A stretch of 64,000 nucleotides of DNA from an uncultured Verrucomicrobiota bacterium (GTDB lineage: Bacteria > Verrucomicrobiota > Kiritimatiellia > CAIKKV01). Position 1 is the stretch's first letter. Every line of letters starts with the position of its first letter. Positions 6,817 to 23,062 of the stretch are shown one piece after another. The notes under the pieces are model-generated. The model worked only from the letters and a program-made list of their open reading frames with translations, was not told the DNA's origin and made no database searches. Made by a program: the position numbers and the translations under genes. The DNA lies in contig CAZSUH010000004.1 in assembly GCA_964609905.1 (NCBI GenBank), positions 971 through 64,970 on the forward strand, given 5' to 3'.

Positions 6817-6843
6817 CCGGATCACGAAAAGGAACCAACGATC

Positions 6844-7707: not shown

Positions 7708-9224
7708 GCCACCCAACCCCCGACTCCCTGCGCGAGGAAGCCCGCAAGCGCCTGGTTGCGCTCCAGGGCAAAACGCTCACACCCCGCGACCGCATGGCGA
7801 TCCCTCCGCAGGAAATGCCCGCCCAGCCGCCCGACGAGCGGCGCGCGAACATGCGCGAGGTGGCGCTCGGTTATTCCGCCGAACAGGCCCGCCTGGAGGC
7901 GCTTCGCTGCCTTCAATGTAAAAACGCCCCCTGCATCAGCGGATGCCCCGTCCGCATCGACATCCCCGCCTTCGTCAAGACCATTGCCGAGGGACGCGAC
8001 GCCGACGCCATCGCCATTATCCGCCGGAACAGCCTGCTCCCCGCCGTCTGCGGACGCGTCTGCCCCCAGGAGGTCCAGTGCCAGGCGCCCTGCACGGTCG
8101 GCAAGGCCCTCAAGGATGTGAGCAAGGCCGTCTCCATCGGACGGCTCGAGCGATATGTCGCGGACGTGGAGCGCGAGTCCGGCGCCTTTCCCCCGCCGGC
8201 GGTCAAGCCGGAGACGGGTAAACGGGTGGCCGTGGTCGGCAGCGGCCCGGCCAGCATCACCGTGGCCGCCGACGTGCGACGCGAAGGACACGCCGTCACG
8301 CTCTTCGAGGCCTTCCATAAACCCGGCGGCGTGCTGATGTACGGCATCCCCGAGTTCCGTCTGCCCAAGGCGATTGTCCAAGCCGAAATCGACACCCTCC
8401 GCGGCATGGGCGTGGAGATCAAGACCAATTTCCTCGTCGGCCGCACCCGCAAGTTGCAGGACCTGATCGCCAAGGATGGCTTCGACGCCGTCTTTGTCGG
8501 CACCGGCGCCGGCCTGCCCAAATTCATGGGGATCGAGGGGGAAAACCTGGTTGGCGTCTTTTCGGCCAACGAATACCTGACCCGGGCCAACCTGATGCGC
8601 GCCTACGACACCGGCCACGCCGACACGCCCCTTTTCAACTCCCGCAAGGTCGCCGTACTCGGCGGCGGCAACGTGGCCATGGATGCCGCCCGCATGGCGG
8701 TCCGGCTCGGCGCCCAGGAGGTTCACCTGGTGTACCGCCGGACGGAGGTCGAGATGCCGGCCCGCGTGGAAGAAGTCGCCCACGCCAAGGAGGAAGGCGT
8801 CCTCTTCCACCTGCTTCAGAACCCGCGTCGAATCCTGGGCAATGACTTCGGGCTCGTGACCGGCATGGAATGTTTACGCTACGAACTCGGCGAACCCGAC
8901 GCCTCTGGCCGCCGCCGGCCCGTGGAAATCCCGGGCAGCGAGTTCGTGATGGAGGTCGACACGGTCATTGTGGCCATCGGCAACGAATCCAATCCGCTGA
9001 TCAAGCAGACAACGCCCGACCTGGCCGTCAACAAGTGGGGCAACCTGATCGTTGATCCCGAAACAGGCAAAACATCCCTGGACCGGGTCTACGCGGGCGG
9101 CGACATCGTGCTGGGCGCGGCCACGGTCATTCTCGCCATGGGCGAGGGACGGCGAGCCGCCGCCTCCATCCATGCGCTCCTGGCGTCGGACGTTTCCGAA
9201 AAACCCGCGTCCGCTCCCGGATGA
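7704..9224 (+). CDS. nfnB: NfnB / glutamate synthase small-chain-like NADPH oxidoreductase (2x[4Fe-4S] + FAD)
   Basis: MSHPTPDSL...CLQCKNAPCISGCPVRIDIPAF...CGRVCPQEVQCQAPC...VAVVGSGPASITVAADVRREGH...VLGGGNVAMDAAR. ATGA overlap with nfnA. The track's 880-aa version is an out-of-context N-terminal extension. Confidence 0.85.
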   Translation: MSHPTPDSLREEARKRLVALQGKTLTPRDRMAIPPQEMPAQPPDERRANMREVALGYSAEQARLEALRCLQCKNAPCISGCPVRIDIPAFVKTIAEGRDADAIAIIRRNSLLPAVCGRVCPQEVQCQAPCTVGKALKDVSKAVSIGRLERYVADVERESGAFPPPAVKPETGKRVAVVGSGPASITVAADVRREGHAVTLFEAFHKPGGVLMYGIPEFRLPKAIVQAEIDTLRGMGVEIKTNFLVGRTRKLQDLIAKDGFDAVFVGTGAGLPKFMGIEGENLVGVFSANEYLTRANLMRAYDTGHADTPLFNSRKVAVLGGGNVAMDAARMAVRLGAQEVHLVYRRTEVEMPARVEEVAHAKEEGVLFHLLQNPRRILGNDFGLVTGMECLRYELGEPDASGRRRPVEIPGSEFVMEVDTVIVAIGNESNPLIKQTTPDLAVNKWGNLIVDPETGKTSLDRVYAGGDIVLGAATVILAMGEGRRAAASIHALLASDVSEKPASAPG

Positions 9225-9805
9225 ACCGCCTCGCTTCCATCCGCGGCGTGATCTTCGACATGGACGGCACGCTGACCCTGCCGGTGATTGACTTTGCTCT
9301 CATGCGGGCCCGCCTGGGCATTCCAGAGGGCGACATGCTGGCGGCCATCCGGTCCTGGCCCCCCGACAAACAGGCCTGGGCATTCGCCGAGGTGGAAGCG
9401 CTCGAGGAAGAGGCCAGCCGCCAGTTGAAACTGCAGCCCGGCGCGGAGGCGTTGATGCAGGCGCTCGACAGGCGCGGCCTACCCAAGGCCATCCTGACCC
9501 GGAACACGGAAAAATCGGTATTGCACCTGCAGCGGTTCCTGCACTCCCGCTTTTCGGTCATCGTCACGCGCGACTTCCCCACCTGCAAGCCGGACCCGGC
9601 GCCGGCCCTGCACATCTGCCGGGAATGGAAACTCGATCCGGCCCGGGTGTTGCTCGTGGGCGATTACCGGGACGACATCCTCTGCGGCAAACGGGCCGGC
9701 AACCTGACCTGCCTGCTCCTGAACGGACGCAATGCCGCCTTTGCCGAACTGGCGGACTTCACGGTGGAGAGTTTGGAGCAGTTGGCGGTCCGTTTTTCGG
9801 ATTAA
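9221..9805 (+). CDS. HAD-superfamily hydrolase (intact copy)
   Basis: GVIFDMDGTLT (motif I), ILTRNT (motif II), K...VGDYRDD (motifs III/IV). ATGA overlap with the nfnB stop. Confidence 0.85.
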   Translation: MNRLASIRGVIFDMDGTLTLPVIDFALMRARLGIPEGDMLAAIRSWPPDKQAWAFAEVEALEEEASRQLKLQPGAEALMQALDRRGLPKAILTRNTEKSVLHLQRFLHSRFSVIVTRDFPTCKPDPAPALHICREWKLDPARVLLVGDYRDDILCGKRAGNLTCLLLNGRNAAFAELADFTVESLEQLAVRFSD

Positions 9806-9847
9806 GAGATCCGACCGATCCGTCGGATCCGACCGATCGGTCCGATT
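9243..9847 (+). repeat. Segmental duplication, copy 1 (605 bp)
   Basis: 9243-9568 and 9743-9847 are letter-for-letter identical to 19167-19492 and 19493-19597 when compared by eye. The translated ORFs on both strands are identical as well. Confidence 0.9.
9808..9846. repeat. 39-nt GATC-rich repeat, copy a (about 2.2 x an 18-nt unit)
   Basis: gatccgaccgatccgtcggatccgaccgatcggtccgat. It contains 4 GATC sites, 2 GGATCC sites and the palindrome gaccgatcggtc. The same 39-mer is found at 19558 and 20344, and a 32-nt version at 19938. Confidence 0.9.
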
Positions 9848-9974
9848 TCCTAAACTTTTCCTGTTCCAGGACATGTCCTTTTGGCCGGAGTTTGCCGTCC
9901 CGTGTAAGGCGGGTTCGGCCCGGAAATGTCAGGAGTTCCGTTAGACCGAATCCCGCAAAAAAGCAGGAATTCCG
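9808..9974 (-). other. Solo scar of the four-helix-bundle gene cassette (5' region + repeat + 3' tail, gene body missing)
   Basis: Colinear with 20344-20511 (about 80% identity past the repeat: ccggaaatgtcaggagtt...aaaaagca.gaattccg). The minus frame reads LEQEKFRKSDRSVGSDGSVGSLNPKNGPPTAPNSPP*. That is the N-terminus (MEQEDFKK-) joined directly to the C-terminal tail of the intact protein at 19509-20405, with the ATG changed to CTG. Confidence 0.7.
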
Positions 9975-9982
9975 GTTCCGGT

Positions 9983-10165
9983 TCACTGCATCAGGATCAC
10001 GCCCGTCTTTCCCGCGGGAATGTTAACGCGCCAAACCAGCCTGTCGAGCGTTTGGCCGTCGCAGGCGAGCGCCGTCAGGCCGAGATTCGAGTTGTATTCG
10101 ATCAGCCAGCCGGACGGCACGGCGTCCTTTGCCACGGTCCGGTCAAGTGTATAGAGCGGATTCAC
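9983..10165 (-). CDS. 60-aa ORF. Either the frameshifted C-terminal beta-sandwich tail of the upstream 791-aa protein or a separate coupled small gene.
   Basis: VNPLYTLDRTVAKDAVPSGWLIEYNSNLGLTALACDGQTLDRLVWRVNIPAGKTGVILMQ*. The GTG start overlaps the TGA stop of the 10162-12534 gene (GTGA), and the frame stays open upstream of the GTG. A paralogous tail remnant lies at 18975-19166. Confidence 0.45.
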   Translation of the reverse strand: MNPLYTLDRTVAKDAVPSGWLIEYNSNLGLTALACDGQTLDRLVWRVNIPAGKTGVILMQ

Positions 10166-12534
10166 TCCGATTTTCTCTTTATGGCGATTCGCTCCACATC
10201 GTGATAGACCTTTGCATACGGCTGAAGCGTGTTGCCCACGGACGCTCGCCAGTGGATATCCGCGCTCGACAGCGTGCCGCCGATCGTATAAGGCCTTCCG
10301 ACGCCCTCGATCGTCTCCATGAGCCTGTAATCGGAATCCCGGTGTTCGAGCGTTGTTCCGCCGCCATAGACGAGATAATCGCCGCCCTTTGCCTCAAAGC
10401 CGGCAAAGGCGATGACAGGGTCGAAACCGCCCCAACCGTTATGAATGGCGAGATAATTCATCGTGCCGAGGTTATCGGGGTCGCCGACGCGCAGGCGGAA
10501 TTGAAGCCATTCGGAACAGCCCGCTTCGCGGTCGAATACGAGTATTTCCCTCAGCTCTGTTTCCGTCTCGCATTGATACTCCCGATAGTGAAACCTGAAT
10601 TCGTTGCGATGAAGCCTGTGCAGCATCCAGCCGTCCGCGGTTTCCTCGAGGCGCCAGTCGGCGTGCTCGTTTCCGAGCTTTTCGCGGACGTAACCGGGGA
10701 TGTCGCCGTTGAAGCGAAGATCTTCCCATTTTTTGATCGCGTTCAGAAAAAACGGCGTCAGGCCGTGCTTTTCAAGCGTTTCCTGGCCGCAGTCAAAGCC
10801 GAACCCCGCCTGATGCGCCACGGTCTGGCCAAGCATGAATTCGAAATCCTCGGGGCTTGTCGCTTCGGTTTTAATGCTTGCGGGATTCGGCGCGCTGAGC
10901 CTGATGTTGTATTGCCCAAGCATGTGCGGCATCAGGTTTCTTTCGAAAAACGCCTGGTTATCCGCGCGGTAGTGGAACATCCCGCCCCGCCCCTGCCAGT
11001 CCCAGTACGGCTCGCCCCAGTTGAAATAGCTGTGCGCGTGCCAGCGGTAGTGCGACGGCGTGCTCGCGTCGCAAAGCAGGTCCGGACCGGAAAACGAGAA
11101 GCAGGTCCGAACGAATTCCGAACAGGCATATTCGCCTCGGCCCGCATACAGGCAGCCCTCCATGCCGTCAAACGAGATTCGCCCGATCCCCGTGTGTTTG
11201 ATCAGTTCGCCCACGCGCCGGGCCATTTCTTTCTGCAGATCGAGATTCGGAAAGAGCGTCAGGTAAGCGTGATCCCAAAGCCTCAGAACGGCGTCTCCGG
11301 CCTTGTGCGGCGACGCGGTTGTGCCAAAAGCGCCCCGCACACAATCAATAAGGGCGTTTTCGTCGCCTGAAACAGACAGGCTTTTGTATTGAATCAGCTC
11401 CGTTCCGATTCTTATGACGTTGAGATGGGAACGCGCCCGGAAATTATTGACATCCATGACCCCAACCCTGGTGTCATTTTCGCCGATATCGGATGAAAGC
11501 GCCGTCCTGTCCATGACCAGAAGATTTTCGTCCGGAACCGGAGTCACATAGGGATCGCTTGTATGGATGAAATTGCTGAGCGTGTGGAAACCCAGGGCGA
11601 TGCCGTCTTTTCCCGCCTCAAGCACAGCCTGTTTCAATCCGTCGTCACCGCCCGCGTAGAGCTTGCCGTCAATCTCGAAATGCCCCCAGCTTACGAACGG
11701 ACCCCAACTGTAGAGGCAGCGTAACCCCGCTTCTTTCGCCCACTCGATTGCGGCGCTTCGCCCTTCCGCGGTCTGCTGGCTGAGCATGAAATACGAACGC
11801 GTCGTTTCCCGCGATTTCTTTGTCCATTCGCCGTTGATCATCGGGTGCGGCAAGCCTTCCCTGAGTTCCACTTCGCCGATCGTGTCGAGCAGGCTCTCGA
11901 ACGGGGTCATGATCAGGGCAATTGCCGCGCCTTTTATGAATGCGTCGTGGCCTTTAACCTCGCACGCTTCGCAGTTCGTCATGCCGGAAAAATCGAACCT
12001 TGCGGGTTTCGACATGTCTCTCGCGTGGCATTGCAACGCCGTGCCATGCGTGCAGGGCAGGGCCGCGCACTCGGCAAATTTGACGCGGTCAAACCCGCCC
12101 ACAAGGGCGGCGCCGCGATATTGATGACGGGCCTCGTGTTCCGCGGGAAAGCCGCCGACGACCTTCGGCATAAGCGACTGAATACACACGGCGGAATCGT
12201 CGTCCCAGGCCGCGCCCACGAGTTCGCCGTAATGTTTCTTCTCCGTGAAATACGGGCCGAAAACAAAGGCCGTGGCAGTGTCCGCGATATCCTCGACAAC
12301 CATCCTGTAATATTTACCGAGATCGGCGATTGAAAGCGAAACGAACCCCCGTTCATACGTTACCATCGCCGAAATCGCCCCGTCGGATTCCGAAACCTCG
12401 GCGCTGACCGGCTCGTATAGTTCGCCGGCCGCAACCAGGAGCCCGACGGGCGAAGAAAACACCCGCGCGCCCCCGAATTCGGCGGTTAAAAAACCCCTGT
12501 CGTCAAGCGACAATCCGCATAGGCTGTTTTTCAT
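10162..12534 (-). CDS. Large hypothetical protein (791 aa, no signal peptide). Possibly carbohydrate-active, but the family was not recognised.
   Basis: Long ORF with normal, non-shadow composition: MKNSLCGLSLDDRGF...GIALGFHTLSNFIHTSDPYVTP...ISFDGMEGCLYAG...NWGEPYWDWQGRGG. The start was moved from 12588 to the ATG at 12534. Its context is with beta-helix proteins. Confidence 0.75.
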   Translation of the reverse strand: MKNSLCGLSLDDRGFLTAEFGGARVFSSPVGLLVAAGELYEPVSAEVSESDGAISAMVTYERGFVSLSIADLGKYYRMVVEDIADTATAFVFGPYFTEKKHYGELVGAAWDDDSAVCIQSLMPKVVGGFPAEHEARHQYRGAALVGGFDRVKFAECAALPCTHGTALQCHARDMSKPARFDFSGMTNCEACEVKGHDAFIKGAAIALIMTPFESLLDTIGEVELREGLPHPMINGEWTKKSRETTRSYFMLSQQTAEGRSAAIEWAKEAGLRCLYSWGPFVSWGHFEIDGKLYAGGDDGLKQAVLEAGKDGIALGFHTLSNFIHTSDPYVTPVPDENLLVMDRTALSSDIGENDTRVGVMDVNNFRARSHLNVIRIGTELIQYKSLSVSGDENALIDCVRGAFGTTASPHKAGDAVLRLWDHAYLTLFPNLDLQKEMARRVGELIKHTGIGRISFDGMEGCLYAGRGEYACSEFVRTCFSFSGPDLLCDASTPSHYRWHAHSYFNWGEPYWDWQGRGGMFHYRADNQAFFERNLMPHMLGQYNIRLSAPNPASIKTEATSPEDFEFMLGQTVAHQAGFGFDCGQETLEKHGLTPFFLNAIKKWEDLRFNGDIPGYVREKLGNEHADWRLEETADGWMLHRLHRNEFRFHYREYQCETETELREILVFDREAGCSEWLQFRLRVGDPDNLGTMNYLAIHNGWGGFDPVIAFAGFEAKGGDYLVYGGGTTLEHRDSDYRLMETIEGVGRPYTIGGTLSSADIHWRASVGNTLQPYAKVYHDVERIAIKRKSE

Positions 12535-12538
12535 GGCT

Positions 12539-12655
12539 TTATTTCCGGCCTCGCAGAGCCTCGGCGACGGCCTGAGCGCCGGGCGCACCGAATAGACCGG
12601 CCAGGATTATCGGGATAAGCGACAACAACTCACTCGATACGAACCGCATTTTCAT
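12539..12655 (-). CDS. Possible 38-aa hydrophobic micro-ORF
   Basis: Own translation: MKMRFVSSELLSLIPIILAGLFGAPGAQAVAEALRGRK*. It has one TM-like segment. Its stop lies 4 nt upstream of the ATG of the 791-aa gene. It falls below the ORF-track size cutoff. Confidence 0.25.
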   Translation of the reverse strand: MKMRFVSSELLSLIPIILAGLFGAPGAQAVAEALRGRK

Positions 12656-12739
12656 GGACACTCCTCTTTCCTGTCACCGTTCACGTCCCGCGTTCAGCAC
12701 ACCCAAAAGACAGTTCCACGCAACGGCGGGCGTGACGCC

Positions 12740-13960
12740 TCAGAACGTCGGCTCGAACTCCGCCGGCTGGCCGCGGCGGTCGACGATCGCGCCGTCGCCG
12801 GCCGGGTCGATGCGATTGCCGGATAGTTCCAGCTCGACGATCTCGGGGTTGATCACGATGCCGGGCTTGCCGGGCCGGCGGCGGATCGAGTTGCCGATCA
12901 ACCGCGTGCCGGCGGTCTCGCCCTGAACGACCACCTCCGCCTCGCCGTCGGCGGCGCCGTTTTCCTCGATGGCACAGGCCTCGACGAGGTTGTGGTGCGG
13001 CCCGTCGGGGCCCGAGCAGCGACGGAAGTAAACGCCCGCCCCGCCGTTGCCGCGGATCGTCAGCCGGCGATTGACGTGGCCGGTGTCACGGGTTCCGATC
13101 GACACGCCGTGCTGGCCGTTGGCCTCGAACAGGCAGTCTTCCAGCACGCTGTCGCGGACGCGGAGGCAGTAGAACAGGCCGCAGCCGGTGTTCCCGCGCA
13201 CAGTGCAGTGGTGAATGTGGAACCGGTTGGACCCGCTGCCGGGGTGAATGCCGCTGCCGCGGCAGCGCTCGATGCGGCAGCCGCCGATCTCGACGTCGTC
13301 ACACGTCTGGAAGCTGATGCCTTCGCCGTGGAAGTCGCGAATGACCAGGTCGCGGAAGGCCACCTCGCGACAGCGGTGGGCGAAGACCCCGCCGCCCCGA
13401 CAGCCGTTCAGCGGCAAGTTCTCGGCCGCGTTGCCGTCGATGGCCAAAGACTCGACGGCAGCCCCCGTCACGTCGCGGGCGCTGACGGCCGAGAAGAGCG
13501 TCTGCGCGACGGCCCTATCCCGCGGGGTGTAGTCGCCGCTGTGGCGCTGGTCGTAGAACCAGGTGTCGCCCCGGCGGCTGATGAGCGTGCCGACCGTGGC
13601 GTAGAAGCCCCCGGCAGCGGCGTCCCAGATGTAGACGCCGTCGCCCATGGCGAAGGCGTCGGGGTTGTCGACCAGGATATCGTCGTGGCCGAAGCCCAGA
13701 AAGCAGATCACGTTGGCGGTCTTGACGGGGTTCTTGCGGAGGATGGTCGTCTCGCCGGCGCCGCGCAGGATGACGCCCGAGCGCAGGTGCACCGAGTCGG
13801 CCAGCGAGTAAACGCCAGGGGCCAGTTCCACCTCGCCCCCGCCGGCGGACGCCACCCGGTCTATCGCGCACTGCGCCTGCACGTTGGTAAACCCCGGCAC
13901 GTCGCACGACGGCGCGCCGACGGTCAGTCGTAAAGCCCCGCCGTGTCGATTCGTTTGCAT
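12740..13960 (-). CDS. Right-handed parallel beta-helix repeat protein (pectate-lyase-superfamily-like), 406 aa
   Basis: MQTNRHGGALRLTVGAPSCDVPGFTNVQAQCAIDRVASAGGGEVELAPGVYSL..., followed by repeated beta-helix coil motifs (IDGNAAEN, VIRDFHGEGISF, IERCRGSGIH, VRGNTGCGLF, FEANGQHGVSI, IRGNGGAGVYF). The start was moved from 14158 to the ATG at 13960. Confidence 0.8.
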   Translation of the reverse strand: MQTNRHGGALRLTVGAPSCDVPGFTNVQAQCAIDRVASAGGGEVELAPGVYSLADSVHLRSGVILRGAGETTILRKNPVKTANVICFLGFGHDDILVDNPDAFAMGDGVYIWDAAAGGFYATVGTLISRRGDTWFYDQRHSGDYTPRDRAVAQTLFSAVSARDVTGAAVESLAIDGNAAENLPLNGCRGGGVFAHRCREVAFRDLVIRDFHGEGISFQTCDDVEIGGCRIERCRGSGIHPGSGSNRFHIHHCTVRGNTGCGLFYCLRVRDSVLEDCLFEANGQHGVSIGTRDTGHVNRRLTIRGNGGAGVYFRRCSGPDGPHHNLVEACAIEENGAADGEAEVVVQGETAGTRLIGNSIRRRPGKPGIVINPEIVELELSGNRIDPAGDGAIVDRRGQPAEFEPTF

Positions 13961-14021
13961 AGTAACGACCCCCCTGTCACGGATGAACAACCCGCCGGAC
14001 GATCTCGGGCTGCCGTTTCTT

Positions 14022-17000
14022 CTACCGTACCAGAATGAGCGAGCCTCTCGGCGCCGAGAGCGAGGCCTGGATCGTGCCGCCGTAGGCGCCCATGTTGATG
14101 ACGCCGCCATTCGGTCGCGGCTCCAGGCCAACGGAGTCGGCCGGATCGCCGGCGTCAATGCAGGGGCTCGTCACGGCGTCACGCACCCACGAAGATGCCT
14201 CGGGGTCCCGGCGGCCACCCCTGCTCCTGAGATGCGCGTCCGTCGCGCTCGCGAACTGCGGGTCCGCGCTGATCACCCCGTTCAGGTACTCGACCACGGC
14301 GCCGCCGCCCGTCACCACGTGCGGCACGTTCGAACCCGTGAGATCGCTGTACGAAACCGTTGCGCGGCTGACCGCGTTGGTCGCGAAAATCTCGCTCCCG
14401 GTGAAGACCGCCGCCACGGCATTGGTCCAGAGGATCGAGTTTTTCAGAACCAGCGTTCCCCCGTCCAGATAGATCGCGCCGCCATTCCCATTGCTGTTGA
14501 TATTGTCTTTAAACGTGCAGTTCACCACGCGGGCCGTCGAAGCCGCCGGCAGGTTCAGCCACATCGCGCCTCCGTAGCCGGGGGTCGTGGGGGCGTTCAG
14601 CAGGGCCACGTTGTCGCGGAACACGCAGTTGCTGAAGGAGGCGGCCGTGCCCGCGGTGTTCCCGACATAGACCCCCGCCCCACCGCCGGTGTTGTTGGCC
14701 CCGGCCTTGTTGCCGATGAAATCCGTGCGGAGGACATTCAGCGTCCCGTTGTTGAAGGCTAACCCCACGCCCACAGTGCCTCGGGTGCCGACTCCGTCCT
14801 CGTTGGAATTGCTCGCGAAGACGCAATCCACAATCTGCAGTTGGGCGCCCGAGGACCAGATGCCGAAACCCCTCTTGTGATACGTGGTTGCCCTGTTGCC
14901 GGTCACGACGCAGTTCGTCATCAACACCGACCCCGCCGTAAAATACCCGCCCACGCCGTCGGTGACGCCGGAGTTCCCCTCGATCCGGCAGTTGGCCATC
15001 GTCAACGCGCCGCCGCCGGACTTGCTTAGTGCCTGACTGATGGGACAGTTCGAGAACACCAGACTGTCCAGCAACACGTCGCCCGCCGTGACCGACAGAC
15101 ACCGGTGGCTGGCCTCTCCGCTGATGACCGTATAGTTCGTCACCACGCCGAACGCATTAATCAAGGCGCGTTCCGCTACCGCCGTTTCCGTGCCCGCAAA
15201 GCCGCCGACCAGCGCCGCACTCTTGGACAGCGTCAGCAGCGCGCCTTCGCCGTATGTGACGCCCGTGATCCAGAGGTTGGTACGCGTTCCGCTGATGGCC
15301 GAAATGCCATCCACGATCTTGGTGTACGCGTTGGCCCAGTCGCTGCCGTCCCCCGCGCCGGTGGCCAGGCGATCCACGTGGATCACGTCCGCCCCGCCGC
15401 CCGGTCCCGCGACACCGGTTTCGAAACTCGCCGCCGCCGTCCAGTTGCTGCCCGCGTTGTTCACGGCGTGCCAGCGATAGTAGTAGGTCGTCTCCGGGAG
15501 CAGCGCGGGAGTCCAGGTCGAGAAGACCGCGCCGTTCTGTTTCTCGCCCACGTCCTTGACCCCATCCCAGCCGTTGGTCGTGTCTCCCGGAATGCGGGTT
15601 GTGCCGTAGCACAGGTAGATCTGCGCGGACACGAAGGTGTCGTTGATCAACTCGCCGCTGATGCTGGCTCGATTGTAGAGGACACTGCAGTCGCGGTTCG
15701 CCGGCAACGGGGGGGTTGCCGGCGGGCTCTTGCCGGCCTCGGCCGTGCCGCCATAGGCGCCCATGTTGATCCGGATGTTGCCGTTGTCCGTCGGCTCGTC
15801 GCCGATCGAGTCCGTCGGGTCGCCCGCGTCAATGCAGGGGCTGAACTCCGCATCCGTGGTGATGAAATCGCCGGCGGCCGGATCCCAGCGTCCGGCCTTG
15901 CTCTGAAGATGCAGATCGGTCGCGCTCGCGAACAGCGGGTCGCCCTCTCGGCAGTTGGAGAAGTTGACCATGCCGTAGATCTGCGGAATGCCGAACGCCG
16001 TCAGGGAGGAGTAGCTCGCGTTCACCGTGCCGACGGCGTTGGCGAGATCGTCTCCCGACGCGCTTGTGCCGGTGCACCGATTCGCCCACAGGATGCAGTT
16101 CTTCAGGTTCAGCGTGCCCTCGGAGAGGTGGATGGCGCCGCCCAAGCCAATGTTGTTCGCATTGGTATTGGCCGTGAACGTGCAGTTGACGAACGACGCC
16201 GAGCGGGAAGCGTTCAGTTGCGCGTAGACCGCCCCGCCGTAGCCATTGTTGCCGTTTGCATGCGGCACGTAGTTGGCCCGGAAGAGGCAGTTGCTGAACG
16301 TGGCGGAGAGGGCCGTGCCATTCCCGAGATACACGGCTCCCCCGCCCCCGTTGTTGTCCGAGGCGGAATTGCCGACGAATTCGGTGCGTATGACTTGAAG
16401 CGTGCCGTCCTGGAACCCGAGACCGGCTCCCCTCAGCGTGCGTGCGCGGTACGGATCTCCGTCCTGGCCGCTGAACGCCGAATCCACGATGGTGAGCGTG
16501 ACGCCGGAACCGTACAGGCCGAGGCCGATCCAACTGTAGGAATCCACCGTCGTGGAGGGAAGCTGGTTGTCGCGGAAAACGCAGTTGGTGATCAGGACCG
16601 TGCCGCCGCTGAAGTAGGCGCCCAGGCCCAAACTCCCGGGCCACCCGACGACCTGGTTTTCCTCGATCCGGCAGTTGTTGAGGACCAGGTTGCCCGTCCC
16701 GGACTTCTCGAGCGCGCGCGGCCGGTCTGTCTTGGTGACGGAGAGCGTATCCAGCCAGACGTTGCCGCCCGTCACCAGCAGGCACTGGTTGGATTCATTT
16801 CCGTTGATGACCGTGTAGTTCGTGACCACGCCGGCCGCGTTGGTGGCCGCGCGCCCGGACACCGCCGTCTCGGTCCCGGCAAAGCCGCCGACGAGGGTCG
16901 CGGAGTTGGTCAGCAGCAGGCGGACGCCTTCGCTGTACGTGCCGCTCGTGATCCAGATGTTGGTGCGCGAACCCCGGATCGCGGGGATCGCGTCGGCGAT

Positions 17001-18818
17001 GCGGGTGAAAGCGCTGTTCCAGTCGGTTCCGTCCGCCGCACCCGTGGCGCCGGCGCGCACGTGGATGACGTCCGCGCCCCCGCCGACGCCGTGCAGCAGC
17101 GGATAAGCCGGCCCGGTGGCGAACGACGCGACCGGCGCCCAGCTCATGCCCGCGGCGTTGCTGGCGAAACATCGGTAGTAGTACGTGGTGTTCGTCATGA
17201 GGTATGGCGTTGTGACGGAAAAGACCATTCCCCCCGCCTGCCGCTGCGGATAAAGAATCTGCACCGCATCCCAGCCGTTGGTGGTCTCACCGGCGATGCT
17301 GGTCGTGCCGTAGCAGAAACCGACGGCAGCCAGGACGGGAACGCGGTTGGTCAGTTCGCCGCGCAGCACCATCCGCGTGTAGTCGTTGGTGAGCGGGTCG
17401 TGGCTGGCCACCTGCGGCGCCGCGGCGCCGCTCTTGGATGCCTGCGCCGTGCCTCCGTAGGCGCCCAGGTTGATCCGGTCGTCATTCGGAGCAGGCTCCA
17501 ACCCCACCGAATCGGCCGGGTTCCCGGCGTCAATGTACGGACTGAACGTCGTGTCGGTGGTCACAAAATCGCCCAGGGCCGGGTCCCAGCGTCCTATCGG
17601 GCTTTGCAGGCGCAGGTCGGTGGCGCTTGCGAAGAGCGGATCGTTGGTCATGCAGTTCGAGAAGGTGGCGGACCCGCCGACCACGTAAACGTGCTGCAAC
17701 CCCAGGCCGGTCAGCGCGCAGTGATCGGCCGACAGGCTGCCGCCCGTCATGTAGATTTCCTTTCCTGTCCAGAGGCTGCGCACGGAGTTGTTCCACAGAA
17801 TGGAGTTCTTCAGGACCACCGCGCCGCTGCTCACGCGAATCGCACCGCCGTTCCCGGTGTCGTTGAGGTTGTCGTAGAACGTGCAGTTGGCAAGCGTGGC
17901 GGTGCTGGCAGCGGCCATGTTCACCCACAGCGCCGCCCCCGCCTGATCGGTGTTATTTTGCCACAAACCCTGGTTGCCCCGGAACAGGCAGTTGCTGAAA
18001 GAGGCAGCGGTGGTCCCGGCGAGACAAACGGCCGCCCCGCCGCCGTAGTTGTTGGCTCCGGCGCGGTTGTCAATGAAATCCGTGCGGAGGACACTCAGCG
18101 TCCCGTTGTTGAAGTACAGCCCCACGCCGCATGCCGTGCGCGTGTCATTGTAAACTCCATACTGGTTCGAGAACACGCAGTCCACGACCCGCAGGTTCGC
18201 GTTCAGGGAATAGATGCCGAAACCGGATCCGCTGTAGGCGGTGGAACCGCTAATGGTGTTGTTGGCCACCACGCAGTTGGTGAGCAGGATGGACTGGACG
18301 GCCCCGACGCTGGGGGCGAAATACCCGCCCAGCCCTTTCATGCTTTTGGTTCGGCCTTCGTGATTCACGATCCGGCAGTTGGCCAGCGTCAACGAGCCGG
18401 CCGTCGTTTTCGTGATGCCGCCCGCGGCCGAGCCATAGCTGTTGCTGATCACCAATCCGTCGAGCGTGACGTTCGTGCCGGTCACCGTCACCACGCGCAG
18501 GTTCTGGCCGTTGCCGTCCAGGATCGTCGGATAGGCTTTCCCGTCGCGCTCGTTCCGCGCGGCCATGCCGTTGGTGAAACCGCCATAGAGCGCGCAGTTG
18601 GTCTGGACGGTGAAAGTGGCCGCGCTCGAGTAGATGCCCTGCGCGAGCCAGATTTCATCGTTGTTCGAGGCGTTGGCCAGCGCGTTGACGAGCGAGGCGG
18701 GGGTATCCCAACTGGCCCCGGCGGGGTCCGTGCCGGTGGGGGTGACGCGGATGATATCGGCGCCGGCGACGCGGCCCGCGGTCAGGATGCATAGAAACAA
18801 AACGGCCCATCGCGTCAT
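14022..18818 (-). CDS. Giant secreted beta-helix repeat protein (1598 aa), three tandem modules
   Basis: Signal peptide MTRWAVLFLCILTAGRVAGA. Each module has PbH1-like coils (xxNCxFxxN), then DPLFASATDLxLQSxxGRWDP...SPxIDAGxPxDS...GAYGG, then an Fn3-like TTYYYR..A.N.AG segment. There is no beta-barrel and no PEP-CTERM tail (the protein ends ...APRGSLILVR). Confidence 0.85.
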   Translation of the reverse strand: MTRWAVLFLCILTAGRVAGADIIRVTPTGTDPAGASWDTPASLVNALANASNNDEIWLAQGIYSSAATFTVQTNCALYGGFTNGMAARNERDGKAYPTILDGNGQNLRVVTVTGTNVTLDGLVISNSYGSAAGGITKTTAGSLTLANCRIVNHEGRTKSMKGLGGYFAPSVGAVQSILLTNCVVANNTISGSTAYSGSGFGIYSLNANLRVVDCVFSNQYGVYNDTRTACGVGLYFNNGTLSVLRTDFIDNRAGANNYGGGAAVCLAGTTAASFSNCLFRGNQGLWQNNTDQAGAALWVNMAAASTATLANCTFYDNLNDTGNGGAIRVSSGAVVLKNSILWNNSVRSLWTGKEIYMTGGSLSADHCALTGLGLQHVYVVGGSATFSNCMTNDPLFASATDLRLQSPIGRWDPALGDFVTTDTTFSPYIDAGNPADSVGLEPAPNDDRINLGAYGGTAQASKSGAAAPQVASHDPLTNDYTRMVLRGELTNRVPVLAAVGFCYGTTSIAGETTNGWDAVQILYPQRQAGGMVFSVTTPYLMTNTTYYYRCFASNAAGMSWAPVASFATGPAYPLLHGVGGGADVIHVRAGATGAADGTDWNSAFTRIADAIPAIRGSRTNIWITSGTYSEGVRLLLTNSATLVGGFAGTETAVSGRAATNAAGVVTNYTVINGNESNQCLLVTGGNVWLDTLSVTKTDRPRALEKSGTGNLVLNNCRIEENQVVGWPGSLGLGAYFSGGTVLITNCVFRDNQLPSTTVDSYSWIGLGLYGSGVTLTIVDSAFSGQDGDPYRARTLRGAGLGFQDGTLQVIRTEFVGNSASDNNGGGGAVYLGNGTALSATFSNCLFRANYVPHANGNNGYGGAVYAQLNASRSASFVNCTFTANTNANNIGLGGAIHLSEGTLNLKNCILWANRCTGTSASGDDLANAVGTVNASYSSLTAFGIPQIYGMVNFSNCREGDPLFASATDLHLQSKAGRWDPAAGDFITTDAEFSPCIDAGDPTDSIGDEPTDNGNIRINMGAYGGTAEAGKSPPATPPLPANRDCSVLYNRASISGELINDTFVSAQIYLCYGTTRIPGDTTNGWDGVKDVGEKQNGAVFSTWTPALLPETTYYYRWHAVNNAGSNWTAAASFETGVAGPGGGADVIHVDRLATGAGDGSDWANAYTKIVDGISAISGTRTNLWITGVTYGEGALLTLSKSAALVGGFAGTETAVAERALINAFGVVTNYTVISGEASHRCLSVTAGDVLLDSLVFSNCPISQALSKSGGGALTMANCRIEGNSGVTDGVGGYFTAGSVLMTNCVVTGNRATTYHKRGFGIWSSGAQLQIVDCVFASNSNEDGVGTRGTVGVGLAFNNGTLNVLRTDFIGNKAGANNTGGGAGVYVGNTAGTAASFSNCVFRDNVALLNAPTTPGYGGAMWLNLPAASTARVVNCTFKDNINSNGNGGAIYLDGGTLVLKNSILWTNAVAAVFTGSEIFATNAVSRATVSYSDLTGSNVPHVVTGGGAVVEYLNGVISADPQFASATDAHLRSRGGRRDPEASSWVRDAVTSPCIDAGDPADSVGLEPRPNGGVINMGAYGGTIQASLSAPRGSLILVR
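14025..18758 (-). repeat. Three intragenic tandem modules (about 17073-18758, 15393-17072, 14025-15392)
   Basis: Module starts: DIIRVTPTGTDPAGASWDTPA / DVIHVRAGATGAADGTDWNSAF / DVIHVDRLATGAGDGSDWANAY. Each is about 560 aa, and the third lacks the trailing Fn3-like part. The repeats are divergent at protein level, not identical DNA. Confidence 0.8.
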
Positions 18819-18974
18819 GATCAGCTCTTGGTGTCGGCATGCGGAGATTTCAGGAAGCGCGATACGCATGTTTACTATAAAAAGAGAAGCCGTCAAACAA
18901 TTTTAATGATTTTGTTTTGCTCGCTACAGGTCTCCTGTTTTGAAAATCCCGCGACAGAATCATTTTATTGCACC

Positions 18975-19166
18975 CGGATCACCGCGGCCTCTTCCGCGGG
19001 AAGGTTAACCTGAATGCGTCAGTTTCGAGCCCGCAACCGGCGCCGCTGCGGCAACCGTCATCTCGACATTGAACGCTTCCGGCGCCGCTTCCGGTCGGAT
19101 CACAACGCCCGGATGCTCGCCGCCATGATCCGTTCCGGCCAGGGTGGTGTCCAACAACGCTTCCGT
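18975..19166 (-). pseudogene. Truncated, frameshifted 3' remnant of a gene paralogous to the 9983-10165 tail
   Basis: Own translation: ...EALLDTTLAGTDHGGEHPGVVIRPEAAPEAFNVEMTVAAAAPVAGSKL, then a frame change to RIQVNLPAEEAAVIRVQ*. Compare ...RLVWRVNIPAGKTGVILMQ* at 9983. The remnant is cut off exactly at the duplication junction 19166/19167. Confidence 0.4.
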
Positions 19167-19171
19167 GCGGC

Positions 19172-19555
19172 GTGATCTTCGACATGGACGGCACGCTGAC
19201 CCTGCCGGTGATTGACTTTGCTCTCATGCGGGCCCGCCTGGGCATTCCAGAGGGCGACATGCTGGCGGCCATCCGGTCCTGGCCCCCCGACAAACAGGCC
19301 TGGGCATTCGCCGAGGTGGAAGCGCTCGAGGAAGAGGCCAGCCGCCAGTTGAAACTGCAGCCCGGCGCGGAGGCGTTGATGCAGGCGCTCGACAGGCGCG
19401 GCCTACCCAAGGCCATCCTGACCCGGAACACGGAAAAATCGGTATTGCACCTGCAGCGGTTCCTGCACTCCCGCTTTTCGGTCATCGTCACGGCCGAACT
19501 GGCGGACTTCACGGTGGAGAGTTTGGAGCAGTTGGCGGTCCGTTTTTCGGATTAA
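19172..19555 (+). pseudogene. HAD hydrolase remnant (lacks the first 9 codons/ATG and 58 internal codons)
   Basis: (V)IFDMDGTLT...RFSVIVT|AELADFTVESLEQLAVRFSD. The in-frame deletion removes RDFPTCKPD...VGDYRDD...NGRNAAF, i.e. HAD motifs III/IV. Confidence 0.8.
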
Positions 19556-20405
19556 GAGATCCGACCGATCCGTCGGATCCGACCGATCGGTCCGATTCTT
19601 CAACCTCCCGAAGCCCTTTGCAGCCGGGATAGCCTGTGCAGCCCCAAAAAGGCGTTCCGGCGCGGGCCCCTTTCCGTGCCATTCGCATGGCCATTGCTTT
19701 TCCGCAAACTGGGCAAACGGGAGCGTTGACCGCGGCGATAGTCTGCTTTTGCCTTTCATCCATTCGCGCGGCGGCCAAGCGTTCGGTATAGCCGCCATCC
19801 TGGATGAACTGGCGTTCCAAGCCCTCAATTTGCCGGTCCAGCAGATAATTGGCCTGATGAACCAGGCAAATGATCGCATTGGCCACCACGGCGGGATCCG
19901 GATTTTCCAGCCACTGTGTATAGGCCTGCCAATCGGGCCGATCCGTCGGATCCGACCGATCGGTCCGATTTTCTCTTCGGTTCCCCCCGATCGCCCGCAC
20001 CTGCCGGGCCCGCGAATCCTCTTTCCCCCACTGCGCAATGTTTCTTTGCCGCAGGAAGTCCTCGTAGTCCAGCAACAGTTCGTCGAGACTGGCGCGCGCA
20101 ACATTCACCAGACGCAATTCGGTTTGGCTGGACGCCGCCGAGGCCCGGCTTCCTTCGGCAATATTCTGGCGTCCACTTCGTGCAGCCTGCACCATCTGGT
20201 CCACCGTGCGGGAGCGTTTGTCCACGAATCGCTCACAAAAAGAAACGGTGGCATCGTAGATAATGGAGGTTACCTGAAAACTGCGCAACCGGCGATAGCC
20301 ACCGCTGGGGCGCAAGCGTGCGAGCCGGTTCTTTTCTTCTGGCGATCCGACCGATCCGTCGGATCCGACCGATCGGTCCGATTTCTTAAAATCTTCCTGT
20401 TCCAT
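19509..20405 (-). CDS. Four-helix-bundle protein (23S rRNA-IVS / Avd family) + 'suffix' domain + C-terminal topoisomerase-type zinc ribbon
   Basis: YRRLRSFQVTSIIYDATVSFCERFV...QMVQAARSGRQNIAEGS...ELRLVNVARASLDELLLDYEDFL. This is followed by ...VVANAIICLVHQANYLLDRQIEGLERQFIQDGGYTERL and then CPVCGKAMAMRMARKGARAGTPFWGCTGYPGC. The 3' end reads antisense through the HAD remnant. Confidence 0.85.
   Translation of the reverse strand: MEQEDFKKSDRSVGSDGSVGSPEEKNRLARLRPSGGYRRLRSFQVTSIIYDATVSFCERFVDKRSRTVDQMVQAARSGRQNIAEGSRASAASSQTELRLVNVARASLDELLLDYEDFLRQRNIAQWGKEDSRARQVRAIGGNRRENRTDRSDPTDRPDWQAYTQWLENPDPAVVANAIICLVHQANYLLDRQIEGLERQFIQDGGYTERLAAARMDERQKQTIAAVNAPVCPVCGKAMAMRMARKGARAGTPFWGCTGYPGCKGLREVEESDRSVGSDGSVGSLNPKNGPPTAPNSPP
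19558..19596. repeat. 39-nt GATC-rich repeat, copy b
   Basis: Identical 39-mer. On the minus strand it encodes SDRSVGSDGSVGS near the C-terminus of the four-helix-bundle protein. Confidence 0.9.
19938..19969. repeat. GATC-rich repeat, copy c (32 of 39 nt), internal to the four-helix-bundle gene
   Basis: ccgatccgtcggatccgaccgatcggtccgat. Here it is translated in a different frame (NRTDRSDPTDRPD) from copies b and d (SDRSVGSDGSVGS). Confidence 0.85.
20344..20382. repeat. 39-nt GATC-rich repeat, copy d
   Basis: Identical 39-mer encoding residues 9-21 (SDRSVGSDGSVGS) of the four-helix-bundle protein. Confidence 0.9.
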
Positions 20406-20474
20406 GACATTTCCTTATTACCGTGCATAAGTCGGCAATCGCTACGCAGGATCGTTCCGGAAATGTCAGGAGTT

Positions 20475-20503
20475 ACATTAGGCCAACCTCCGCGAAAAAG
20501 CAA
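20475..20503 (-). promoter_or_regulatory. Putative sigma70-type promoter of the four-helix-bundle gene
   Basis: The minus strand reads TTGCTT-17 nt-TAATGT (-35 at 20498-20503, -10 at 20475-20480), about 70 nt upstream of the ATG. The scar copy at 9930-9965 has a degenerate version, CTGCTT-17-TAACGG. Confidence 0.35.
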
Positions 20504-20535
20504 GAATTCCGCGACAGAATGCCGATTCACCGCGT

Positions 20536-23036: not shown

Positions 23037-23062
23037 CTTCGAACACTCGCTTTCCGGCCCGG

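Follow-up and report, generated by a model that had tools for sequence, protein, structure and literature searches.

The 39-nt repeat and the gene that carries it

The window, i.e., the whole 64-kb stretch of DNA analysed here, contains a gene encoding a protein that combines a four-helix bundle (4HB), a suffix domain and a zinc ribbon. It also contains a HAD-family hydrolase gene, a truncated second copy of the latter and a group of genes for beta-helix surface proteins (Table 1). Three copies of a 39-nt repeat are embedded in the 4HB gene, and a solo copy lies beside the intact HAD gene.

Table 1. Features of the rearranged HAD/4HB locus in the 64-kb window.
Feature	Position	Strand	Evidence and remarks
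Intact HAD-family hydrolase gene	9221..9805	+	Pfam, NCBIfam; convergent with the 4HB gene, its ancestral neighbour; syntenic in L085 and L086
Solo array	9808..9846	.	Exact copy; directly 3' of the intact HAD stop codon; left-hand junction of the 9.75-kb segment
Decayed remnant of the 4HB gene start and 5' region	9848..9974	-	ATG changed to CTG; 80-90% like 20383-20511
Beta-helix surface-protein genes (about 9.2 kb)	9975..19166	.	Pfam Beta_helix/NosD, DUF5123
Truncated second HAD copy	19167..19555	+	100% identical to 9243-9568 and 9743-9805; the 174 nt between them missing
Gene for 4HB, suffix domain and Topo-type zinc-ribbon protein (298 aa)	19509..20405	-	Profile matches
C-terminal nonamer array	19558..19596	.	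Exact copy; past the zinc ribbon; right-hand junction of the 9.75-kb segment
Internal (L1) nonamer array	19931..19969	.	Loop from helix 3 to the suffix helices; frame 0, RTDRSDPTDRPD; 36/39
N-terminal nonamer array (39-mer)	20344..20382	.	Exact copy; begins 24 nt past the 4HB ATG; read as SDRSVGSDGSVGS
First codons and 5' untranslated/promoter region of the intact 4HB gene	20383..20511	-	Alignment with L085 and site A

The 39-mer GATCCGACCGATCCGTCGGATCCGACCGATCGGTCCGAT is exact in the solo, C-terminal and N-terminal copies, and the internal copy differs from it by 3 mismatches, its last 32 nt, from position 19938, being identical, as the initial annotation had reported. It found no match in 100 dinucleotide-preserving shuffles, and no array was found in the window beyond the rearranged HAD/4HB locus. 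TRF gave periods of 9 and 18 nt, and the 39-mer can be written as 4.3 tandem 9-bp units of the form GATC-N-G-W-C-N. Each copy holds, as annotated, four GATC sites and a 12-nt palindrome (GACCGATCGGTC, positions 24-35 of the 39-mer), whereas GGATCC occurs once per copy (position 18) and not twice. The earlier remark that all copies share one orientation carries little weight, because the 39-mer is nearly its own reverse complement (34/38 positions equal) and the 18-mer is found on the minus strand as well if 1-2 mismatches are allowed. Within the 4HB open reading frame (ORF), the N- and C-terminal copies begin in codon phase 2 and encode SDRSVGSDGSVGS, whereas the internal copy begins in codon phase 1 and encodes RTDRSDPTDRPD, confirming that the terminal and internal copies are read in different frames.

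The product of the 4HB gene scores above the curated cut-offs of two NCBIfam models, TIGR04258 (76.2 bits, cut-off 40) and TIGR02436 (31.1 bits, cut-off 24), and under the Pfam cut-offs for PF01396 (30 bits) and PF05635 (27.9 bits, cut-off 33.8). The predicted structure has its best Foldseek matches, with weak E-values (at least 0.085), in 2gsc (probability 1.00, target TM-score 0.69) and 2rld, and the modelled fold thus resembles solved members of PF05635. In a sequence search of solved structures only the zinc ribbon found matches, to Topo III-alpha. Profile, structure and defence-family searches recognized no nuclease, recombinase or methylase domain in the protein, and PADLOC returned no match to known defence families. 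The pLDDT falls below 50 at residues 1-35, 145-156 and 274-298, which cover the three array-coded stretches, and the translated arrays are predicted to be disordered.

Rearrangement of the HAD-4HB neighbourhood

Two related genomes carry orthologous 4HB loci, L085 and L086, and in neither of them are the beta-helix genes present between HAD and 4HB. The contiguous order ispG-4HB-HAD-gltD of L086 represents the ancestral order. In the window, the stretch 9743-9847 is 100% identical to 19493-19597, and the identity stops one base beyond the array (9847 and 19597). The solo copy has the left flank of the C-terminal copy, and its right flank is 80-90% like that of the N-terminal copy. Since a 9.75-kb segment flanked by the copies at 9808 and 19558 interrupts the ancestral HAD-4HB neighbourhood, these copies would be the crossover points of a genome rearrangement, a conclusion supported by this comparison. 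Such a rearrangement explains the segment only in part, as the HAD copies are 100% identical, yet the two copies of the 5' region are only 80-90% identical.

A metagenome assembly could also produce such a picture if strains were mis-joined, giving rise to false repeats or to a false duplication of the HAD/array segment. The contig is apparently metagenomic, blocks of 300 and 105 nt are 100% identical, and the protein of the window was not found in the public assemblies searched, so that there is no second assembly for site A. However, a chimeric join would produce neither the 5' truncation peculiar to the second HAD copy nor its internal deletion of 174 nt, and the gene-resident arrays, all three, are seen again in independent assemblies as well as in 60 further loci. 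In L085 and L086, which were assembled independently, the same three sites are occupied by arrays, showing that the three gene-resident copies are real; this support covers those three copies and not the solo copy at 9808. We regard an artefact as very improbable.

Arrays in homologous 4HB genes

More than 8000 homologues of the 4HB protein were scored. Of 63 close homologous 4HB loci, drawn from more than 15 phyla, 60 have arrays at one or more of the sites N, L1, L2 and C; within 4HB/suffix/zinc-ribbon genes these sites are the gene ends and the disordered loops that join folded parts. The N-terminal array has a counterpart at the equivalent place in 25 homologous loci. Forty homologous loci have an L1 array, which is in frame 0 in every one, and C-terminal arrays occur in 23 loci and in three frames. 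When the window is compared with L085 and L086, its L1 and C arrays are 85-95% identical to theirs; the N array matches that of L086 at 29/39 positions, whereas that of L085 has lost two units, the remainder being identical (21/21). The coding sequences are 73-82% identical to those of the same two loci, and their third codon positions 56-66%.

A nonamer array consists of 4-6 tandem units and spans 36-50 bp; it can be described equally well as tandem 8-bp palindromic boxes, CNGATCNG, with one A/T base between boxes. Conservation reaches 88-99% at G6, 89-99% at W7 and 93-100% at C8, and positions 5 and 9 are free. In internal arrays, position 6 is conserved though it is a synonymous site, whereas position 5, the second codon position, varies freely. 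Positions 5, 7 and 9 vary independently of each other (linkage equilibrium), leaving no trace of an origin of these variable positions by mixing of an ancestral unit with its own reverse complement, which we therefore discarded.

Internal arrays are always read in frame 0 as D-x-S/T, the array-coded segments are predicted to be disordered and slippage clearly occurs, and all this would fit an ordinary low-complexity, acidic and hydroxyl-rich peptide linker, with the identity in the window due to recent duplication or slippage only. The codons argue otherwise. The variable residue is P, R, Q or L only, which are exactly the residues of CNG codons and have no common chemistry, and the synonymous sites T3 and G6 are fixed. 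The ratio of Asp codons GAT:GAC is 245:68 in the linker (78% GAT) versus 190:311 in the folded domains (38%; p = 2e-30). Furthermore, the terminal arrays keep the motif in other frames (frames 0/1/2: 10/13/4 for N-terminal and 3/11/10 for C-terminal arrays of homologous loci) and also outside the coding sequence. Sister clades carry other nonamers, GTC-N-GAC-NN and TATA-N-GWC-N, at the same gene places, and these encode S-D-x or Y-x-T/S peptides, unlike D-x-S/T. As far as sequence analysis can refute it, the peptide-linker reading is refuted by the codon evidence, and we judge it extremely unlikely.

A simple slippage microsatellite or minisatellite could be rejected too. Among 61 GATC/GWC arrays of viral contigs, 29 have at least three distinct units and keep the GATC/GWC motif, whereas none of the 35 arrays found using three control motifs had at least three distinct units; control 9-mers thus never yield heterogeneous arrays, which also speaks against a mere peptide linker. 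The main inference of the initial annotation, that constraint or homogenization acts on the nucleic acid and not on the peptide, therefore holds well beyond the window. It is borne out by the terminal arrays in all three frames, the conserved G-W-C, the preference for GAT and the different peptides of the other clades, and the comparison of orthologous 4HB genes that it called for showed arrays conserved independently of frame. These observations support the view that the nonamer arrays are a DNA-level repeat family and not a peptide motif.

Unit turnover

Adjacent units are identical in 22.8% of pairs versus the 5.7% expected, long unit runs (28, 21 and 19 units) exist, and the N-terminal array of L085 differs by an 18-nt indel. 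Units are common to different arrays of one locus in 11.2% of cases versus 4.8% between loci (permutation maximum 7.8%). In L086, derived units are common to the L1 and C arrays (35/38), and in the window the N and C arrays are identical (39/39). Taken at the level of sequence, these data show that arrays gain and lose whole units, as by slippage, and that their evolution is concerted, both among the arrays of a gene and among those of a locus. The role of recombination substrate, one of those listed in the initial annotation, gains support from this intragenic concerted evolution and from the structure of the window.

The repeat might instead be maintained as an RNA element, with mRNA hairpins or pairing of the 5' and 3' copies serving as terminators, stabilizers or RNase III sites in the manner of the stems at the ends of 23S rRNA intervening sequences (IVS) that encode this protein family. 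The copies of the window do fold at -26 to -30 kcal/mol (z-scores -3.1 to -4.3), and the protein family is named for rRNA intervening sequences. Nevertheless, across arrays, neighbouring spacers are reverse-complementary in 2.2% of pairs versus 5.0% expected, W does not alternate (44% versus 51%), and the folding of a homogeneous array such as (GATCCGACT)9 is poor (z = -1.2). Both cores are palindromic, a property for which recognition as RNA would have no need. Since the complementarity of neighbouring units is below expectation, and neither a terminator-like site at the arrays nor an Rfam match was found, a conserved hairpin or terminator was rejected, and an RNA element in general appears quite improbable.

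Array types and protein clades

The array types (GATC-N-GWC-N, GTC-N-GAC-NN and TATA-N-GWC-N) are mutually exclusive across loci and follow protein relatedness in 75 of 76 cases. All 3-4 positions within one gene share one type.

These sister-clade arrays bear on a reading in which the repeat would be a dense cluster of Dam-type (G6mATC) sites, whose binding or nicking would depend on methylation, as with SeqA or MutH at GATC clusters. GATC is the best-conserved core, with 4-6 sites spaced by 9 bp; each unit also has one TCNGA, both cores being palindromic like methylase or restriction sites, and several arrays lie in or beside restriction-modification genes. On the other hand, the sister-clade arrays lack GATC at the same positions, GATC outside the arrays of the window is neither avoided nor enriched (O/E 1.03), and the scan of ten window ORFs found no methylase. 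Most of the array hosts, which span more than 15 phyla, are not known for Dam, SeqA or MutH. We consider this reading improbable.

Arrays outside the 4HB gene

Arrays are scattered over gene boundaries, in-frame loops of unrelated proteins and phage genomes. In-frame arrays were found in restriction-modification and CRISPR genes, among others, the products concerned being HsdM, Cmr, Cad1-like proteins, a DUF1156 methylase, NRPS and phage portal proteins. Such a scatter is possible because the 9-nt unit is usually free of stop codons and its translation gives a hydrophilic linker. The copies in other genes and in phages support the suggestion, also made from the window, of an interspersed repeat that tolerates being translated as a linker. 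The NRPS arrays recur in one variable loop ahead of the A2 core motif, with no clean insertion boundary. We found no MITE-like termini, target-site duplication or flank consensus, the flank profiles showing only a fading echo of the motif. Related phage contigs gave no case of filled versus empty sites, every related pair sharing the same arrays. Reference plasmids yielded one distant match and reference phages none. The idea that phage arrays are footprints of excised 4HB cassettes is unlikely, as array-rich viral contigs lack the 4HB gene, which is almost absent from viral contigs in general and essentially absent from those that carry arrays.

This distribution is best weighed against an explanation to which we give a small but real weight. 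It supposes that a pool of arrays is kept in the host genome by some other factor (restriction-modification, methylation or a DNA-binding protein), and that the linkers of a transferred, loop-rich 4HB gene are overwritten from it by gene conversion. In a metagenome sample, about 90% of the arrays lie away from the 4HB gene, many phage-contig arrays are likewise found without it, unit flavours are common within a locus, and the same type at all 3-4 positions of a gene needs homogenization. However, the array type goes with the protein and not with host taxonomy, as Terrimicrobiaceae and Akkermansiaceae each have both type 1 and type 2 genes. Besides, the 4HB gene is by far the commonest recurring neighbour (8 of 79 metagenome loci with heterogeneous arrays), and no candidate host factor was seen.

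Comparison with known systems

The papers searched contain no description of the arrays, and neither the array sequences nor repeat peptides in this sense nor the term "four helix bundle suffix" appear in them; the GATC nonamer arrays are apparently an undescribed repeat family.

They resemble REP/BIME sequences and their RAYT genes in being scattered short repeats, in flanking one conserved, usually single-copy gene, and in that repeat type and gene lineage go together. However, REPs are imperfect hairpins with a GTAG head that are only intergenic, whereas the arrays are tandem nonamers without a conserved hairpin and also lie in frame in 4HB, HsdM, Cmr, NRPS and portal genes. Moreover, RAYT is a Y1 HUH transposase, whereas the array-flanked gene has 4HB, suffix and Topo zinc-ribbon matches only.

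Rickettsia palindromic elements (RPE) are likewise inserted in frame in coding genes and translated in tolerant surface regions. They are palindromic elements of 100-150 bp confined to Rickettsia, whereas the arrays are 36-50 bp of 9-bp units without a flank consensus, present in more than 15 phyla and in phage contigs. With the cyanobacterial HIP1, GCGATCGC, the arrays share a palindrome with a GATC core and a nucleotide-level constraint in coding and non-coding DNA. HIP1, an isolated 8-mer, is very dense and limited to a single phylum, unlike the arrays, which are periodic (9 bp, 4-6 units), of low density and tied to one gene family.

Like the arrays, the met boxes of MetJ (2-5 tandem copies of the 8-bp AGACGTCT) are short palindromic boxes in tandem with a fixed spacing just under one helical turn, the copy number being 2-6 for the two taken together. 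Such a layout would be expected if dimers bound cooperatively along the DNA, although we use this likeness as a working analogy only. Met boxes lie in the promoters of a regulon, whereas the arrays occupy gene ends and sites within coding sequence, and their reader is putative.

In integrons, too, direct copies of a recombination site lie on either side of a small gene, a site stands alone where the gene is missing, and a circle that integrates at a single site gives the arrangement of the copies at 9808 and 19558. The arrays differ in having no paired-core/inverted-repeat structure of attC, and no IntI was found among the ten window ORFs scanned. Recombination at the arrays, unlike that of integrons, would rest on sequence identity and host homologous recombination.

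The proteins of 23S rRNA intervening sequences and Avd (PF05635 family) belong to the 4HB family as well, and these members ride in sporadic inserted elements. The window has no match to an rRNA gene or to any further Rfam family, the neighbours of the 4HB gene being ispG and the HAD-family gene, and the ten window ORFs scanned include no reverse transcriptase. Where array copies are not identical, they differ at G and C positions, and this variation is not adenine-specific, unlike that of diversity-generating retroelements. The 4HB subfamily found here differs from the IVS and Avd proteins in its added suffix domain and zinc ribbon.

A proposed role for the arrays

The explanation that we favour, and hold to be on balance probable, is that the 39-mer is the homogenized nonamer array of this genome, providing portable homology and kept by a reader that binds double-stranded DNA. 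Identical arrays would serve as portable homology for the homologous recombination of the host, permitting gene conversion between copies as well as the excision or Campbell-type integration of DNA located between two copies; the 4HB gene would then be a cassette bounded by direct arrays. A length of 39 bp is close to the lower limit for RecA-type recombination, and arrays of different genomes are only about 80% alike.

The fixed bases, symmetric under reverse complementation, would be kept by a dimeric or oligomeric protein reading tandem boxes on double-stranded DNA, and a protein-binding array, another role listed in the initial annotation, is plausible. By analogy with REP sequences and the RAYT gene that they flank, the likeliest reader may be the 4HB-zinc-ribbon protein or else a partner that moves together with it, a suggestion that we make tentatively. 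As a counterpoint, the link between array type and protein clade could be due to co-inheritance together with homogenization from a host-specific pool of arrays.

A bolder proposal, rather unlikely in our estimate, is that the arrays and the 4HB/suffix protein belong together as a repeat and its cognate protein, a pairing so far unrecognized. On double-stranded DNA, the protein of each clade would recognize the array type of that clade and promote its spread, homogenization or recombination. The arrays would then be translation-tolerant attachment sites that move cassettes and insert linkers without a known transposase or integrase.

REP, RPE and HIP1 are each confined to a narrow bacterial group, and REPs alone have a known partner protein. 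The arrays differ from them in being spread over more than 15 phyla, in lying inside coding sequence at the loops of folded proteins, and in falling into three or more motif classes, whose distribution parallels the clades of a single, very widespread and uncharacterized gene family. If they are recombination or protein-binding sites, this would provide a first testable function for the four-helix-bundle family. It would also explain why 4HB genes are found between housekeeping genes and inside defence operons, and the arrays would be one route by which bacterial and phage proteins acquire linkers in frame and exchange modules.

On the practical side, the arrays create spurious repeat-peptide ORFs (IGRIGRI, SDRSVGS) and lengthen gene calls. 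In the window, the array extends the 4HB gene call in such a way that the C-terminal tail of the ORF runs antisense into the HAD gene.

A 39-nt element read in two frames of one gene

The 39-mer GATCCGACCGATCCGTCGGATCCGACCGATCGGTCCGAT occurs exactly at the N and C positions of the four-helix-bundle (4HB) gene and in a solo array, as the initial annotation had it, with no match in 100 dinucleotide-preserving shuffles. The internal copy (L1) has three mismatches and, as had also been claimed, agrees fully with the 39-mer in its last 32 nt. The first and last of the three copies held by the 4HB ORF start in codon phase 2 and encode SDRSVGSDGSVGS, and the middle one starts in phase 1 and encodes RTDRSDPTDRPD, so the proposal that one gene reads the element in two frames stands. 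Each copy carries the four GATC sites and the palindrome GACCGATCGGTC that had been described, but one GGATCC site and not two. TRF assigned periods of 9 and 18 nt. The copies do share one orientation, but this tells little, since 34 of 38 positions stay the same when the 39-mer is reverse-complemented. In the rest of the window GATC is at expectation, neither in excess nor in deficit. CTAG is strongly under-represented in the whole window (5 observed, 32 expected, O/E 0.16).

The 4HB ORF matches the suffix domain TIGR04258 (76 bits), the family TIGR02436/PF05635, which takes in 23S rRNA intervening-sequence proteins and Avd, and a topoisomerase-type zinc ribbon; beyond these 4HB, suffix and zinc-ribbon matches, no catalytic domain was found. 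In the AlphaFold model the helices and the zinc ribbon are confident, and confidence falls below 50 only at residues 1-35, 145-156, and 274-298, ranges that cover the three array-coded stretches. The top structural matches were the solved PF05635 members 2gsc and 2rld, whose alignment spans the internal loop, which places the middle copy, in the model, in a loop within the bundle.

The ORF passes through the C array into the antisense strand of the end of the convergent HAD-family hydrolase (HAD) gene, with the tail LNPKNGPPTAPNSPP. Where the stop codon lies varies among homologues, within or just past the C array, and therefore the tail is probably a read-through accident. The gene closes a conserved housekeeping run and stands outside any defence island in the window, a setting in which many homologues differ.

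Coordinates of the arrays, genes, and rearranged segments
Feature	Locus	Position	Description
Array N	window	20344	before bundle
Array L1	window	19931	between helix 3 and suffix
Array L2	window		between suffix and zinc ribbon; absent in window
Array C	window	19558	after zinc ribbon
Solo array	window	9808	after intact HAD gene
4HB ORF	window	19509-20405 (-)	three 39-mer copies
4HB tail	window	19509-19557 (-)	antisense to HAD gene end
cdsA-dxr-rseP(M50)-ispG	window	20536-25242 (-)	housekeeping run
Intact HAD gene	window	9221-9805	
HAD fragment	window	19167-19555	lacks 174 nt (9569-9742)
Bracketed segment	window	9848-19597	between identical arrays
Gene	window	10162-12588	no Pfam match
Gene	window	12740-14158	Beta_helix/NosD match
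Beta-helix/DUF5123 surface-type protein gene	window	14022-18896 (-)	1624 aa; three ~1.7-kb internal repeats, 60-90% identity
Very long array	L061	4678-4924	28 units
Very long array	L026	4906-4981	9 units
Very long array	L030	5753-5837	10 units
Very long array	L068	1050-1224	19 units
Very long array	L130 (viral)	12581-12764	21 units
Partial second 4HB copy	L046	5847-6079	behind first copy
DUF1156-type DNA methylase gene	L049	3283-6978	adjoins 4HB gene
Coiled-coil ORF	L001	6886-7065	59 aa; just downstream of 4HB gene
Flanking arrays	L001	6824, 7138	either side of coiled-coil ORF (region 6824-7177)
Third array	L001	5155	between two ABC ATPase genes; 45-aa ORF called there

Arrays at fixed places across the gene family

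Scoring covered more than 8000 homologues, the best 120 of which are 62-78% identical, and 80 loci were drawn from species-representative genomes of Desulfobacterota, Planctomycetota, Verrucomicrobiota, Nitrospirota, Chloroflexota, Acidobacteriota, Armatimonadota, KSB1, and other phyla. In 60 of the 63 close loci GATC recurred every 9 nt exactly, at as many as four fixed positions. The unit consensus (type 1) is GATC-N-G-W-C-N: positions 6, 7, and 8, which the search criterion left out, are G in 88-99% of units, A or T in 89-99%, and C in 93-100%, and any base occurs at positions 5 and 9. Zinc-ribbon homologues at 44-50% identity carry GTC-N-GAC-NN arrays (type 2) at N, L1, L2, and C, and homologues without the zinc ribbon carry TATA-N-GWC-N arrays (type 3), chiefly at L1. 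Types 1, 2, and 3 were found in 45, 9, and 7 loci, never together in one locus. The peptides that they encode are entirely unlike (D-x-S/T, S-D-x, and Y-x-T/S); a 9-nt period and short palindromic cores are common to all three. An extra zinc ribbon ahead of the N-terminal array in two proteins (P0006 and P0019) and the partial second gene copy in L046 suggest module rearrangement at arrays.

Constraint on the nucleotides

Every internal array is read in frame 0 as GAT-CNG-WCN, which puts the fixed G6 at the third position of a codon and the free N5 at the second. Only P, R, Q, or L occurs as the variable residue, four amino acids with a common codon form and no common chemistry. Asp codons in the L1 linker are GAT 245 times and GAC 68 times, against 190 and 311 in the parts of these genes that encode folded blocks (p = 2e-30). 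Terminal arrays keep the motif in frames 0, 1, and 2 (10, 13, and 4 cases at N; 3, 11, and 10 at C) and often extend, intact, beyond the start or stop codon.

The comparison of orthologous 4HB genes that had been recommended was made with the two closest loci (L085 and L086, independently assembled). Their L1 and C arrays have 85-95% identity to those of the window, as against 73-82% for the coding sequence and 56-66% for its third codon positions. The N array matches that of L086 at 29 of 39 positions; in L085 it has lost exactly two units and matches at all 21 remaining positions. These patterns uphold the earlier suggestion that selection or homogenisation acts on the nucleic acid and not on the peptide, and, judged from sequence, they place the constraint on the nucleotides.

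Turnover and concerted evolution

Adjacent units are identical at four times the expected rate, and the longest runs reach 28, 21, and 19 units. Very long arrays consist of blocks of identical units, lie just up- or downstream of the gene or within a phage ORF, and look like recent slippage expansions. Units from different arrays of one locus are shared in 11.2% of comparisons, versus 4.8% between loci (maximum of 300 permutations, 7.8%). In the clade of the window all three gene arrays are versions of one 39-mer; L1 and C of L086 share derived units (35/38), and N and C of the window agree at 39/39. The arrays thus evolve in concert, and the simplest mechanism would be gene conversion among copies read in different frames.

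A rearrangement bracketed by arrays

The order in L086 is ispG, 4HB, and then convergent HAD and gltD, and in L085 it is 4HB, HAD, and gltD. The window has gltD, the intact HAD gene, the solo array, and a decayed 4HB gene start (ATG to CTG; 80-90% like the live copy), followed by ~9.2 kb of beta-helix genes, a HAD fragment, the C array, the 4HB gene, the N array, and ispG. The 9.2-kb block, comprising three genes, is missing from the two related genomes. The HAD fragment is without ~22 nt at the start of the coding sequence and an internal stretch of 174 nt, is 100% identical to the intact gene elsewhere, and has the look of a pseudogene copy of very recent origin. This identity stops one base past the array on both sides, so that identical arrays bracket the segment. 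Integration of a circle with one array into the resident C-terminal array would be expected to give such an arrangement, as would an equivalent unequal exchange. The HAD copies are identical but the 5' regions diverged, a mismatch within this arrangement. On every path constructed we infer a crossover in the array.

Candidate readers of the motif

No conserved hairpins across arrays and no Rfam family or terminator match at arrays were found. The fixed bases amount to palindromic boxes in tandem, CNGATCNG, with one A/T base between neighbours, which points to recognition of double-stranded DNA by a symmetric protein. Tandem met boxes, which the arrays resemble in this respect, offer an analogy. 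By association, the leading candidate reader is the 4HB product itself, but it has no catalytic domain. In 75 of 76 proteins the array type matches that of the nearest relative, as judged from the four-helix block. A host-specific pool of arrays would account for this link between clade and type equally well, and we therefore regard the identity of the reader as tentative, hold the recombination role with moderate confidence, and have high confidence in the descriptive account of the arrays. Among the papers searched, none has the array sequences, the repeat peptides in this sense, or the suffix-domain name. The nearest known kinds are REP/RAYT, Rickettsia palindromic elements, and HIP1, and each differs from the arrays in defining features that were tested.

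Arrays away from the gene

Among 2.9 million viral contigs, GATC/GWC units formed 61 arrays four or more units long, 29 with three or more different units. Three control motifs of like form, GTAC/GWC, TCGA/GWC, and GATC/CWG, gave 35 arrays, all plain slippage repeats of one or two unit types, and by this comparison the GATC/GWC motif is specific. Type 2 arrays scattered in viral contigs numbered 93 (36 heterogeneous). The 4HB gene is hardly ever present in viral contigs, reference phages, or plasmids. A metagenome scan gave at least 120 loci; among the matches listed, 79 have heterogeneous arrays, and the 4HB gene, carried by 8 of these, is the most recurrent neighbour family. The other arrays among these matches lie at gene edges or within large proteins, including NRPS adenylation domains. 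Neither a flank consensus nor a target duplication was found around arrays.

The idea of an interspersed repeat translated as a linker gained support from in-frame arrays in several gene families. In the flanks of homologous 4HB loci they occur in HsdM and HsdM-HsdS fusion genes, Cmr/RAMP genes, one Cad1-like gene, and the DUF1156-type methylase gene of L049 (five arrays, two different frames). The Type I fusion genes of L020, L029, and L047 have one or two arrays each, and L029 and L047 differ in unit number between the methylase and specificity domains. A Mu-like phage contig holds six arrays within 7.5 kb, one in the portal gene. In NRPS genes (L205, L217, L261, and L287) arrays occupy the variable loop that immediately precedes the LAYxxYTSGSTG core motif of adenylation domains, recurring across several modules and contigs. 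In a Deltaproteobacteria MAG (L001), a small coiled-coil ORF has an array on either side.
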